This document shows, in pieces, positions 7,294 to 63,403 of a stretch of 64,000 bases of DNA. Numbering within the stretch: the stretch's first letter is position 1; each line of letters starts with the position of its first letter. Where the stretch lies: the NCBI GenBank assembly GCA_964016885.1, contig OZ024758.1, positions 14,260,001 to 14,324,000 on the forward strand, given 5' to 3'. The notes beneath the pieces are model-generated. The model had not been told where the DNA came from, did not search any database, and saw only the letters and a program-made list of their open reading frames with translations. The stretch comes from Eledone cirrhosa (taxonomy: Eukaryota). A program made the position numbers and the translations under genes.

Positions 7294-7571
7294 AATAATA
7301 ATAAAAGAACAATTTGTTATGTCTTCATTACGTTTATTCAGTAGTGACGTGCGTTTCGCTATTGATCAGCTCAAGGTTCGATGGAATCGCCTCTGGAATC
7401 AAAAGCTCGTCGGACCTCTACTGCGGTAATGACAGCAGAGGCCCGATGAGATTTTGATTCCAGAAGCGGGCCAGATCGATACAAATTGAACCTTGAGCTG
7501 ATCAATAGCGAAACGCGCGTCACTACTCAATAAACGTAATGAAGACATAACAAATTGTCCTTTTATTATTA
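7294..7571. repeat. Imperfect fold-back inverted repeat, ~130-bp arms
   Basis: Arms meet near 7423-7430; contains gcgaaacgcgcgtc followed by aataaa. Confidence 0.85.
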
Positions 7572-7670
7572 TATTTACACTCTGCTTAGTTCTACACCTC
7601 TTTACAGACAGGAAACTATGCATGGAGTGCTCACTTGGGTGAACCTACAGTAACTGCACATTACACTGCC

Positions 7671-8043
7671 ATGGCTTAGTGGTTAGAGCATTGGCCTTGC
7701 AATCGAAAGGTTGTGAGTTCAATTCTCAGACCGGGTGATGTGTTGTTTCCTTGAGCAAGACACTTTATTTCACATTGCTCCAGTTTACTCAGCTGTAGAA
7801 ATGAGATGATAGGGACCGGGGTCCCTATCATTCCACTGCAAAGTGGTCGTGGAGGTGCCACGGCAAAAAATCTCCCAGCCCACACTGTAAAGTGGACGTG
7901 TAGGTGCCACGGAAAAAAAGCACCCAACACTCACTGTAAATGAGGTTGGTGTTAGGAAGGGCATCCAGCTGTAGAAATCAAGCCAGAATCAGTTCCCGTC
8001 ACACCCTTGCAAGCAGGGAAAAGTGGACGTAAAATGATGATGA
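7671..8043 (+). mobile_element. tRNA-derived SINE with RTE-derived body and tail
   Basis: A box tggcttagtggt, B box gagttcaattc, tail cacccttgcaagcagggaaaagtggacgtaaaatgatgat. Confidence 0.85.
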
Positions 8044-9569
8044 TATACAGTATATATATATATGTGTGTGTGTGTGTGTGTGTGTGTGTGAGAGTCCTGG
8101 GTTCAATCGGAGGTAATTACAATAAGTAAGGTACTCAATACATTAGTAGAGTGTATACAACAAAATTTAATATAGAAATAGCTTCTACAGGACTAGAACT
8201 GTTTCATTCAAAGGAAATCAGTTCTATTATTTACTCTTCTCTGGTCACCACCTTTAACCCTTTAGCATTTACATTACTCTATATTTACTATTGTATTTTG
8301 TGGTAAAGGCTTTACCTCACATAATTATCTCGCATAGTATCAAATCTATGAGATTTTTATATTTATTTTGAGAACAATACCTCAACATAAGTATAAGCAG
8401 CCAGTTACAGCCGGTTTGAACAGAGAGAGGTGAGAGAATTCTGGCCGGATATGGCTGGTTTAAATGCTAAAGGGTAATGGTATTTAGTAAATCATATCAG
8501 ACCCAGTACTTATTTTCTTTTATGTCTGGTATTTTATCAATCTCTTTGTGTCTGCCTGCTACATTATAGGACATCGACACACGCACACACATCATCATCA
8601 TCATCAATTACGTCCGTCTTCCACGCTAGCATGGGTTTGACGGGTCCTATTTTGAGGCAAGTTGTGTCGGGTAACCGTGTCTCGCTCAAATAGGTGTGAT
8701 TCTGGCTGGTTTTCTACAGCTGGATGCCCTTCCTAATGCCAACCACATTTACAGTGTGGGCTGGATGCTTTGCTTTTTTGGGGGGGGGGGGGGGCATTCT
8801 GTACATATGCTTCGGCTTGTGCTCATATATATATATATACTTTATCTATTATACCTAAGTTGTATCTGTTGAAGCAGCCCTTTGAAAATTCCTCGGATCT
8901 CCCAAATCCCGTAATTTTTAACTTTTAATTTGTAATTTTCCTCAATTCGTTTATATATATCTTTAAAGGCTCTCTAAAATTTTAATTCTTTGAAGGGTCT
9001 CTCGGAAGAGGTTCTTATTAAAAATATTAAAGGGGCCTTTTCTGAGGGATTTATTGAAGGCTTTTTGAATTAACCTTTAATTGATTAGTTTCTTTCAACT
9101 TAGTAGGGATTATCAAAACTTCGTAAATTTTCTGAAATTTTTTAACGTGATCTCTGGGAAAAAACATTTTTTTCTTTCGAAGGAATTTTTTAGGAAACTT
9201 TATATTTTTATTTTTTTAGTCTCTTAATCTCTTCTGGTTTGTTAGGTTTATTGGGGCTTATAAGCTTTATGCACTTATTGAGGGATTTTTTAAGGTGCTT
9301 CTACGAGATCCCAAGTCTTTTACTTTTAATGCGTAAATTATAAATTCTCTAATTTTTAACCTTCAATCTCTGACTCTTAGGCCCTTTTCAAATTCTCTTA
9401 ACTCCCCATAACCCATCCCTTTTACAACTCCGACAACTAATATAAAAGAGCCCCTTAGAATATAGACCCCAAATATACAAGCGTAGCTGTTGATGTATAC
9501 CACAATTTCAAACTGCTAATCTTGAGTGAAACGTTGATGTAAAAAATGAACTTACAATCACCTGTTATA

Positions 9570-9616
9570 TGCCTTGAAAAGTCCCACCATATGGTCGGAC
9601 GAAACGGCCGTTGGCA
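9570..9616 (+). ncRNA. Minimal type I hammerhead ribozyme-like motif (variant core)
   Basis: ugcc-UUGAAAA-gucc(caccauaugguc)ggac-GAAA-c(ggcc)g-UU-ggca; all three stems can be drawn; AATAAA follows. Confidence 0.6.
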
Positions 9617-10289
9617 ATAAACTTGTTATAATGTCATAATAGTTCCTTTGTTCTTTTTCATTAATATTTCTGCTCTGCTTATACGCATAGAGCTTAACTA
9701 GCTACCGTCGCATATTTGGTAGGTCAGGCGTGATCATCGCGATTCACATACGACCTACCATACATCTTGCTTATATATATATATATATATATATATATAT
9801 ATATATACAATAGGCTTCAGGAATTTCTGTCAAGCAAATTTCGCTCACAAGGCTATATATAGAGGGGGTAAAAATAAAAATGGTGCCATTTTTATTTTAG
9901 TCACCTTGTATATAAAATGATATTTTGCAAAATTGTTACATATAAACTTGTATACATGCATACCACCTTATTTACTTCTTTCCTTCTAAAGAGAAATTAT
10001 CACTTTGTTCATGAAGAATGTCGACCATTAGAATTGGCCAGCATAATCAAATAAATAAGATATTGAGTCAAGGAGAAGACATAGAACATAAAAATTAAAA
10101 ATAAGAACAATGGAAAGCATGCTATTTCTGGTATATTTGAAATAATGCAATAGCACAAAGAATGGCACTAGGTTAAAAGTCTACTTTTCTTTGGTATGTA
10201 AATATTTAACTTATTTTAACAATACATCGTATCATTCATGATATGAATGTGTCAGACTGAACTCCTGTTTAAATGGGATATTAAGACTT

Positions 10290-61172: not shown

Positions 61173-61561
61173 CTACAAAGATAGAAAAATACAAGAGAAT
61201 AAGACATGGCATACACATGCAGCAAATAGTTATAAAAGGGTTAAGTTATGTTCCAAATACCAGCTTAATAACAAGAAAGTTAGATATATTACTAAATCCC
61301 TCCAAATTCTTGGTTATTTTCAAAATTATGTGAAAATTCTTGCTCTAGGCTCTTGAAATCATTCAGGGAAGAGGAACCCCTCCCTGGACTCCTTTCACAG
61401 ACTCTTGTCCCTTGCCAGTCTTGGCTATGAGGGTCCCAGGTGGTTGGTGAGATATGGCAACAAAAGTCACTACCCACTTTACTTCCACAGAACTTGCTCA
61501 GGTTGCTGAAGAACTAAATAACAGACTTAATGAACAGAATAATTTCAATATAAATACTTAC

Positions 61562-61631
61562 ATCGTTCGTTATGAAATTTCTGACAGGTCTTAACAGCAA
61601 CAAACAAGTCATTATTAGAAATAGGGGTTCC
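61562..61631 (-). CDS. B3GLCT: B3GLCT exon
   Basis: ttccag/gtaagt; 70 nt; GTPISNNDLFVAVKTCQKFHNER, the fringe-like FVAVKT..KFH..R motif. Confidence 0.93.
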
Positions 61632-62834
61632 CTGGAATAAACAACATTAACAAACATTATTATATTGGATTGGCAGCATCGGTAGAGGGTCGGATGCCAT
61701 GCTTTCCAGCATAGTTACGTCCCTTTACGATCTGAGTTCAAATCCAGCCGAGGTTGACTTTGCCTTTCATCCTTATGGCGGTCGATAAAATAAAGTACCA
61801 GTAATACACTGGGTAATTGCTGGCCTTGTGCCTAAAAATTAGAAACAATTATTATATCTCTAGTCTAAAAAAATCTAAAGTCTGTCTCAAGTTCGGAGGC
61901 TCATCAGGCTGGCGTTTATCCTGGTTTCATGGTGTCAAGGGACCGAGAGTACAAGATTTGAGGTCAGCTTTCACCACCTCTGCCCAGGCCTTTCTCGGTC
62001 TACCTCTACTGTGGCTTGCTTCCACTAGCATTTCCTGGCACTTCTTCATTCATCAATCACCATCCGTGCACATCACGTCCATACCAACGCAGTCTTTTCT
62101 CCTGCACACCACCTCGGATTCCTCTTAACCATTTAATGTTCAAACCGGCCAAAATTTTCTACCTCTTTCTGTTAAAACTGGCCACTCATACTGATGTTAA
62201 GATATTGTTCTCAAAATAAATACTTTCAAAATCTCATAGATTCGATATTATGTGAGATAATTATGTGAAGTAAAGCCATTACCATGAAAATATAATAGTA
62301 TATATAGAGTAATGTGAATGCTAAAGGGCTAAACCCACTTTTTCTTCCTCAGTTTGTCTAAGCTCTGCCTTTCTCTCACATTTACATTGTATATCCAACA
62401 AAGCATAGTTGCTTCATTTCCCTCCAGTTTAACAAAGAACTTAAATATATAACAACATTAATGTTCCATGTGGGTTTAGCTGGTCTCCTATGAGGTTTCT
62501 TAGGTATTTTGATAGTAGGAGCCCTTAATCCTATCATGAAAAGACTCCACTTTAACTGAACACCTGCTTGTTGCAAGAGTTAACCCCACCTCCCAGCTGC
62601 TGCTTCTATTCTTTCTTTTTTTTTCATCTGAGTGAACTGGAACAAGAAATGAAGCATCTTGCTCAAGTGCACAATGTGTTGCCTGATCTAGGAATCAAAC
62701 CCATGACCCTGTGATTCTGACATCAACAACCTAACCACCAGGCCTTCACAACAACATTAGTGAAAGGTAGATGACTAATGCAGATTTTTTTTCACAGTAG
62801 GAGGAGTGGTAGATAGACAAAGAAACATACTTAC

Positions 62835-62948
62835 ACAGTGTGGGAATTTATGAGGTAAATATACAGCACAATCCTGCTTCCTGTTACAAAACTCTGGCAC
62901 ATCAGTGAGAGAAACACCATTTCCATCATCCCAAATGTACATAGCAAG
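62835..62948 (-). CDS. B3GLCT: Beta-1,3-glucosyltransferase exon (first of 7 in window; upstream exons lie beyond the window end)
   Basis: ttttcag acceptor, gtaagt donor; 114 nt, phase 0/0; LAMYIWDDGNGVSLTDVPEFCNRKQDCAVYLPHKFPHC resembles vertebrate B3GLCT [21 protein letters not shown]. Confidence 0.9.
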
Positions 62949-62980
62949 CTGAAAATATATTAAAATAGTATAGTTATATA

Positions 62981-63403
62981 CGGCATACGTCAAAACGGCC
63001 GGTCTCAAAAGTGAAACTAATGTTTGACAGTTACGTACACGTTATAAAAGTTATTTAAATTTATATATATAAAATAAAGGAGCAAATAAGAGCATGATAT
63101 GAAGTCAGTCATGTGTGTGTGTAAACGAATGTAAAAGAATATATGTAGGGCATAGATAAGGTTTCCTAGAATTTTACACACACACACGTGTATATATTAT
63201 AGTGTGTATGTGTGCATATATAAGTGTATATGTGTGTACTTTTACATTCGTTTACACACACACACACACACATGACTGACTTCATATCATGCTCTTATTT
63301 GCTCCTTTATTTTATATATATAAATTTAAATAACTCTTATAACGTGTACGTAACTGTCAAAAATTAGTTTCACTTTTGAGACCGGCCGTTTTGACGTATG
63401 CCG
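62981..63403. repeat. Inverted repeat, ~160-bp arms with ~100-nt spacer, in a B3GLCT intron
   Basis: Arms 62981-63137 and 63239-63403 with a few mismatches. Confidence 0.9.

Follow-up and report, generated by a model that had tools for sequence, protein, structure and literature searches.

Inverted pairs of probable Penelope-like element fragments with a common stem-loop in their tails in the genome of Eledone cirrhosa

In a 64-kb stretch of the Eledone cirrhosa genome (contig OZ024758.1, positions 14,260,001 to 14,324,000; hereafter the window) we analysed six inverted repeats, designated A to F. Five of them (A-E) are very probably head-to-head pairs of short 3'-end fragments, derived from four hammerhead-type families of Penelope-like elements (PLEs). 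This origin is indicated by (i) hammerhead motifs, (ii) the head-to-head geometry, (iii) a one-sided tail, (iv) TA-rich flanks of B-E and (v) a bulged stem-loop common with PLEs of the Hydra clade, to which D and E likely belong. Judged from sequence, the stem-loop would be the best link between these loci and autonomous PLEs. The loci are dead scars, and no function is needed to explain A-E.

Inverted repeats of the window

All six inverted repeats reported in a first-pass annotation were recovered at the places given there, with offsets of at most a few bases and E values from 1e-17 down to 0 in a self-BLAST of the window. These loci, and one related solo copy, are as follows.

Locus A, 7295..7572: head-to-head pair with a 10-nt centre (~7424-7433), tail-less, without (TA)n
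Locus B, 18204..18342: arms 18285-18312 and 18315-18342, 81-nt tail on the left arm, TA-rich flanks
Locus C, 39933..40119: centre in the stem II region, 79-nt tail, hammerhead 3' half in both arms
Locus D, 43266..43490: 81-bp arms, no spacer (centre GTCGAC), 63-nt tail on the right arm, (TA)n on both sides
Locus E, 55198..55752: identical 194-bp arms (55359-55552 and 55559-55752), (TA)n on both sides
Locus F, 62980..63404: symmetric 143-bp arms, 139-nt microsatellite-rich spacer, TA ends, no hammerhead, no tail
Copy D2, 5835..5973, plus strand: solo, uninverted, 5'-truncated copy of family D (80% over 125 nt), between TA-rich runs

As judged by the direction of the hammerheads, all five pairs A-E are arranged head to head with their 3' ends outward, each consisting of inverted 5'-truncated copies joined at the 5' end. 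No direct (head-to-tail) second copy was found beside any locus. In ungapped comparisons the arms differed at 4 of 88 positions in A, 1 of 28 in B, 4 of 43 in C, 1 of 81 in D and 2 of 143 in F, and were identical over 194 positions in E. One arm continues into a tail at B (81 nt), C (79 nt), D (63 nt) and E (161 nt), the same four loci that had been named before; the E tail, however, reaches 55198 and does not end near 55270. In E, which has a 6-nt centre, the tail is carried by the left arm, and the right arm is tail-less. A and F are symmetric, and both arms of A stop at one 3' point, ~51 nt beyond the cleavage site. TA-rich runs, which mask target duplications, flank B, C, D and E on both sides; A has no (TA)n run.

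Loci B and C represent one family (87% over 122 nt) and their outer 3' ends are identical. The centre of B is the GAGCTC palindrome of this family, situated in stem III and altered by one base. Locus D contains GAAACCACTGGTA in both arms and lacks stem I, and the solo copy D2 carries the hammerhead 3' half, the stem-loop (5911-5931) and the full tail. The earlier suggestion that the fold-back point varies within a family is borne out by B versus C, and by four more junctions in family E (see below). The window holds five PLE-type hairpins per 64 kb (~1/13 kb), rather than the one per 10 kb that had been estimated. A PLE origin had been proposed for the whole set; it is retained for A-E on account of motifs, geometry, tails and stem-loop, but not for F, which has no hammerhead. 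This locus, of which a second copy was not found in the window, is likely a miniature inverted-repeat transposable element (MITE) outside the PLE set.

Hammerhead motifs

The window was searched with two descriptors, and 100 block-wise dinucleotide shuffles of it served as the null model. GAAAC with a short stem had been regarded as a marker of these repeats. The three stems quoted for it are indeed present (in A, E and D), but the pattern GAAAC plus stem III plus GUH alone matched 17 times, little more than the 10.6 +/- 2.5 expected by chance (shuffle maximum 17). The strict descriptor, in which a C(T/C)GANGA core and stem II are required, gave four matches (the right arm of A, both arms of E and an unpaired motif at 17334) against a chance mean of 0.01; by descriptor, no hammerhead was found in F. 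The complete motifs are listed below.

Hammerhead of A, right arm, 7443..7521, plus strand: type I, CCGATGA core, long stem II, GAAACGCGCGTC
Hammerhead of E, 55663..55709, plus strand: complete type I, 4-bp stem I, CCGAAGA core, 7-bp stem II, GAAACAGCTGTA
Hammerhead J, 17315..17365, minus strand: complete type I, unpaired, CTGATGA core, GAAACAGCTGTC, 8-pair stem I

The left arm of A contains the mirror motif (7413-7346, minus strand), with one change in stem III. In E the predicted cut falls after 55705, and the mirror motif is located at 55448-55402 on the minus strand. A type I hammerhead near the 3' end is thus complete in A and E, represented by its 3' half in B, C and D, and absent from F; cleavage is a prediction throughout. 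B, C and D keep the 3' half only, and have no valid 5' core, because the junction falls within the motif: in stem III (B), in the stem II region (C) and, to judge from the sequence of D2, apparently at the end of the core (D). The description of these repeats as ribozyme-like hairpins was therefore too strong, since three of the five loci have lost the 5' core, and a transcript running across both arms would pair each motif with its own complement.

Motif J represents a further family, with the same stem III as E; it lies in no hairpin and adjoins no (TA)n run. Rfam returned no hammerhead family among 98 matches with E values up to 5, the top matches being microRNA models placed on hairpins and microsatellites, under their cut-offs. 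Two other candidates were rejected. CTGAAGA in D, considered as a catalytic core, has no stem I and fails the stem II test, and D2 suggests that it is part of stem II. CTGAAGA...GAAAC at 42163 lies inside a remnant of a long interspersed nuclear element (LINE), has no stem I and was attributed to chance.

A bulged stem-loop in the tails

The tails carry a stem-loop composed of a 4-bp outer stem, an inner stem of 4-6 bp and a 2-nt bulge, for which a descriptor was written after the loci had been seen. It occurred five times in the window, in each case within a tail (D, D2, E, B and C), compared with 0.11 occurrences by chance. Besides the stem-loop of D2, already given, these are:

Stem-loop of B, 18253..18276, minus strand: ACTC...GAGT version
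Stem-loop of C, 39983..40006, minus strand: ACTC...GAGT version
Stem-loop of D, 43432..43452, plus strand: gctctg...gagc version
Stem-loop of E, 55322..55355, minus strand: gctctg...gagc version

The gctctg...gagc stem had been noted earlier in several tails. We found it in D, E and the solo copy at 5911 (three matches, none in 100 shuffles), whereas B and C contain the ACTC...GAGT version. Between D/D2/E and B/C, four of the eight pairs are altered on both sides in a compensatory manner, which represents two lineages and not four events. At all four tailed loci, belonging to three families, the short arm ends a few nucleotides before the stem-loop (3 in E, 4 in D, 5 in C and 8 in B). The stem-loop itself lies 42 (D), 50 (E) and 25 nt (C) beyond the hammerhead cut site.

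A by-eye comparison with consensus sequences of the Hydra clade (PMC8557442, File S7) revealed the stem-loop in four of the six: 43, 38 and 47 nt beyond the cut site in Hydra-2_Amil, Hydra-2_Ajap and Hydra-1_Crog (the last with one mismatch); in Hydra-1_Ajap it occupies the 5' start. The two remaining consensus sequences terminate 36 and 47 nt after the cut site, and the corresponding distances for the ends of the short arms are 38 nt in D and 47 nt in E. The comparison covered Hydra-clade consensus sequences only, and the stem-loop is not a published criterion of the clade. The words "stem-loop" and "hairpin" occur 0 times in the main text of PMC8557442. A literature search of incomplete coverage returned neither a description of this stem-loop nor a PLE model with two cDNAs; either may be in print. 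As a non-coding marker, the stem-loop may reveal Hydra-type fragments without an open reading frame (ORF) that are missed by repeat annotation.

Two apparent further occurrences were dismissed as chance. A metagenome scan with the stem-loop pattern gave 116 loci, none of which (0/116) had a BLAST match to eight query elements, and a 13-letter match in a sequence of the Craig supplement belonged to a non-Hydra record without the closing stem.

Assignment to Penelope-like elements

In PLEs, an adjacent inverted 5'-truncated copy, a one-sided tail of 30-40 bp and a bias towards (TA)n have been described (PMC8557442, available part), and Penelope-13_HM is listed there with such an inverted copy. 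Parent elements of the endonuclease-bearing type have a single ORF for a telomerase-like RT and a GIY-YIG endonuclease, framed by partial-tandem pseudo-LTRs; the window contains no long copy. A tail on one arm is present at four of the five loci (B, C, D and E). The same four are inserted in (TA)n and A is not, although this preference is unspecific, being reported also for Naiad and Neptune. The organisation typical of retrozymes (head-to-tail tandem units, each with a complete hammerhead) was not observed, as all pairs are inverted.

Several observations weigh against the assignment. Its link with autonomous elements is a non-coding motif compared by eye, and A has no tail, stem-loop or (TA)n run. 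In B and C stem III is longer and the spacing shorter, and the tails measure 63-161 nt compared with the published 30-40. The core of E is CCGA and its helix II lacks a G-C pair at the base; folds of the monomers yield stem II or stem I, never the full hammerhead (z -0.5 to -1.2). Moreover, Pfam detected neither GIY-YIG nor a PLE-type reverse transcriptase (RT) in 142 of the 357 frames of at least 55 aa, and the RT matches in the window correspond to an APE-type LINE and a remnant. The fragments of A-E span 140-560 nt, however, so the absence of a PLE ORF is expected, and PLE motifs of this kind fail to cleave as monomers according to the available text of PMC4209133.

Two coding candidates were discarded: a 52-aa frame across the E centre, considered as a GIY-YIG end, has no homologue and reads the centre in the wrong sense, and a four-residue likeness (seen by eye) of the sequence just upstream of the E centre to the Hydra C-terminus is too short.

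Other copies of family E

Contigs and reads from sequencing runs aligned to E numbered 934 records in X1, 56 in X4, 5023 in X16 and 0 in X5, the last being no proof of absence. Family E is large and diverse, and most of the aligned reads differ from E by at least 5%. Many copies end at 55283-55287 with mixed flanks, the distal end thus lying 72 nt into the tail. Unfolded copies run on upstream from 55550 on the plus strand (six contigs of X1 and two of X4); the centre loop of E therefore belongs to the tail-less arm.

Among the seven joints listed, four can be read as other head-to-head junctions of the family. The joint 55405/55706 (one X1 contig) is symmetric and coincides exactly with the predicted cut site of the hammerhead, two letters separating the arms. 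Joint 55300/55728 (one X4 contig) connects a tail-only antisense piece with a tail-less sense piece, without overlap. The remaining two junctions are 55220/55601 (one contig) and 55226/55446 (55 reads with one start). The other three joints comprise a 124-nt deletion and an 18-nt duplication present in both arms. The centre of E was spanned by none of the eight X1 pieces among the 16 of 995 pieces listed. Another sample yielded one contig (X4) that covers 55485-55616 with 16 other letters and is probably another copy.

As a separate observation, the 55405/55706 joint would fit a template 5' end made by self-cleavage. Coverage of a 77-nt segment of the tail (55287-55363) is far above that of the rest of E, and the segment is common to copies that differ upstream; within the family no other part is as conserved.

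Formation of the inverted pairs

The formation of tandem and inverted PLE structures is called unresolved in the available part of PMC8557442. The account which we prefer, with middling credence, is that each pair arose from two cDNAs primed by opposite target strands and joined by microhomology. Each strand of a cut TA-rich target would prime a separate cDNA. The two fixed 3' ends would correspond to two RT start sites, one situated 3-8 nt before the stem-loop and the other 63-81 nt further. Both cDNAs would halt early, in many cases within the folded hammerhead or close to it, and the truncated ends might then anneal at short native palindromes, after which repair would fill both strands. 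More tentatively, and with distinctly less assurance, we suggest that this is a form of twin priming in which the two start sites are set by a conserved stem-loop of Hydra-type elements from coral, sea cucumber, copepod and octopod. If so, the stem-loop would be the binding and start signal of the protein.

The most serious competitor, possible yet clearly less probable to us than two cDNAs, is the snap-back mechanism put forward in the first-pass annotation. It shares the PLE origin and assumes that a short native stem lets the first cDNA fold and prime itself, copying then being stopped, or the product cut, before the stem-loop. The idea is not new, as palindromic inverted junctions have been read as self-priming on an antisense template (PMC3846280, available part). 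It agrees with centres placed on native palindromes or stems (GAGCTC in B; in E a 6-nt loop whose flanks are complementary in unfolded copies), as well as with short arms that end 3-8 nt before a hairpin, where a polymerase might stall. It also directly predicts near-identical arms with common locus-specific bases, as seen in B versus C; two cDNAs explain these only if both were copied from one RNA or one source locus.

Nevertheless, snap-back fits the loci worse than a join of two cDNAs. Under snap-back the loop belongs to the first cDNA, and the second arm cannot outrun the start of the first, so that the tailed arm is predicted to own the loop. The loop of E instead follows the sense of the right arm, which has no tail and cannot template the 161-nt tail of the left one. 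There is also no usable loop at D, which has no spacer, or at B, which is centred on a 6-base palindrome; within one strand this palindrome would form a single base pair around a 4-nt loop, compared with six pairs between two strands. At A both arms end at one site without a tail. A lesser point is the 55300/55728 contig, in which the head-to-head pieces do not overlap. We favour the two-cDNA account because of the loop sense at E, the centres of B and D, this contig and the behaviour of a lizard (Anolis) PLE protein, which in vitro cuts and extends both target strands and starts RT at two internal RNA sites bracketing the tail (PMC11167929, available part).

The two-cDNA account has its own difficulties. 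The orientation of the loop is known at one of the five loci, and the polymerase could simply stall just before the stem-loop. Later flipping of the centre between inverted arms could give the same picture, with identical arms. Each joint is known from a single contig or start, matched at 80% likeness over sides of 23-30 letters, and the loss of the central part of an E-like palindrome would look the same.

It is improbable that solo PLE fragments were inserted first and that replication or repair by the host subsequently produced or remodelled the inverted arm, whether through template switches at TA runs, flipping of the centre or homogenisation of the arms. Fold-backs unrelated to PLEs do occur here, as exemplified by the one with 28-bp arms in a SINE-like repeat (57717-57779), and the arms of E are identical though most reads of the family differ from E by at least 5%. 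Random repair, however, would not fix the end of the short arm, which lies 3-8 nt before the same stem-loop at four of four loci from three families, nor does it suit five pairs that are all head to head.

Still less probable are ordinary MITEs, mobilised through their terminal inverted repeats by a DNA transposase. Symmetric repeats with fixed ends characterise F (143-bp arms, TA ends, no hammerhead) and, formally, A. The ends of B-E are asymmetric, B and C combine the same ends with different centres, D2 represents an uninverted copy of family D, and family E has four other junctions. Fixed symmetric termini, named beforehand as evidence against PLE origin, are hence confined to F and A. Assembly chimeras from fold-back reads, which the 100% identity of the E arms and the absence of an X1 piece (n=8) spanning the E centre would suit, are the least credible of all, given 1-4 substitutions between the arms of A, B, C, D and F, the return of E into unique sequence with the next exon, ends tied to a conserved stem-loop, and the X4 contig from another sample (55485-55616, 16 other letters), which shows that a hairpin with this centre exists there.

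The scars permit a simple genome-wide test of mechanism, namely which arm owns the centre loop. Were stem-loop-directed twin priming the rule, the published self-priming idea would be overturned, and an unsettled step in the PLE cycle would be decided solely with genome data, by the centre orientation of thousands of octopod scars.

Host gene and other features of the window

The window is rich in microsatellites and SINE-like repeats. It includes the last seven exons of a beta-1,3-glucosyltransferase gene (minus strand, ~62945 to 56051), one of which shares 89% identity over its aligned portion with Octopus bimaculoides and Argonauta hians proteins. Locus F lies ~30 nt before the splice acceptor near 62950, and E begins 296 nt past the stop codon. 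The first AATAAA on the strand of the gene is located inside the second arm of E, 593 nt past the stop. A transcript reaching this signal would fold into a duplex of at least 100 bp. Since E may place a long perfect duplex in the 3' untranslated region of a host gene, it may provide a substrate for RNA editing, a process known from cephalopods.

Several other repeats and frames were observed. An open frame of 1022 aa at 2713-5781 (plus strand), matching APE endonuclease, RT and PHD finger, is apparently an intact LINE ORF; LINE remnants occur near 41861-42596 and 61817-62128. Decayed inverted repeats between TA runs, without hammerhead and hence not counted in the set, are present at 15630-15817 and 15914-16222; the former begins with CAGGGTGTCCC, a start which we take to resemble a Tc1/mariner end. 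The small fold-back at 57717-57779 likewise has no hammerhead. A long tandem array of a 72-nt unit (19862-24070), open for 1402 codons in one frame, is probably a minisatellite. The frame at 14692-15051 (plus strand), with a Pfam match to a homeodomain-like helix-turn-helix, is presumably a mariner transposase remnant, and that at 53469-53828 (minus strand), which had no Pfam match, in our view resembles the end of a PIF1/Helitron helicase. The tRNA-like heads of an abundant SINE family were detected at 7672-7729, 36612-36669, 51366-51421 and 58812-58869.

Comparison with known systems

The loci most closely resemble the insertion unit of endonuclease-bearing PLEs, as described in the available parts of PMC8557442 and PMC3846280, with which they share the 5' truncation, the palindrome at the junction, the tail on one arm and microsatellite targets. 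They differ in that no ORF is left, the tails are longer and four families are found within 64 kb.

Consensus elements of the Hydra clade encode RT and GIY-YIG and favour (TA)n; the clade is defined by RWK and DKT motifs, a CxCX5C linker and an endonuclease without CCHH, and includes an octopus member, Hydra-1_Obim (PMC8557442, available part). The likeness to this clade concerns (TA)n, a hammerhead close to the 3' end whose 4-bp stem III is nearly palindromic and, by eye, the stem-loop 38-47 nt past the cut. In contrast, the cores of A and E are CCGA, while ~30 Hydra and Chlamys rows in the accessible part of File S2 have CTGA, and a clade defined on protein motifs is compared here with fragments that have no ORF. 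The core motif of Hydra-1_Obim gave 0 matches with up to three mismatches, so none of the loci is Hydra-1_Obim.

The metazoan PLE hammerhead consensus has a helix II of 7-8 bp, a helix I of 4-5 bp and a palindromic helix III, and dual motifs occur on opposite strands, 100-700 bp apart (PMC4209133, available part). The same type I topology with long helix II, short helix I and palindromic helix III is seen here, and the helix sizes of E match. Unlike that consensus, E has a CCGA core and no G10.1-C11.1 pair, stem II of A measures ~60 nt, and B, C and D keep the 3' half only.

Poseidon of Anolis (PMC11167929, available part) shows the same two fixed 3' ends around a tail, a stem-loop in the start region, AT-rich targets, and cutting and extension of both strands; its stem-loop, in contrast, is AC-rich and lies in the ORF start, and the origin of inverted copies is not treated in that part of the text.

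In L1 twin priming, the two target strands prime two cDNAs, and microhomology joins these into a copy with an inverted 5' part. The arms of L1 inversions do not overlap, whereas those of the present loci mostly do, and have fixed internal starts.

Non-LTR retrozymes (bioRxiv 10.64898/2026.07.22.740005, available part) are likewise non-coding, PLE-related and equipped with a type I hammerhead, but their units form head-to-tail tandems and not head-to-head pairs.

The inverted truncated copy, the one-sided tail, the (TA)n bias, the hammerheads on opposite strands and the self-priming idea are already published. What these scars likely add is the common stem-loop just past the end of the short arm, together with hints that the arms were copied separately.

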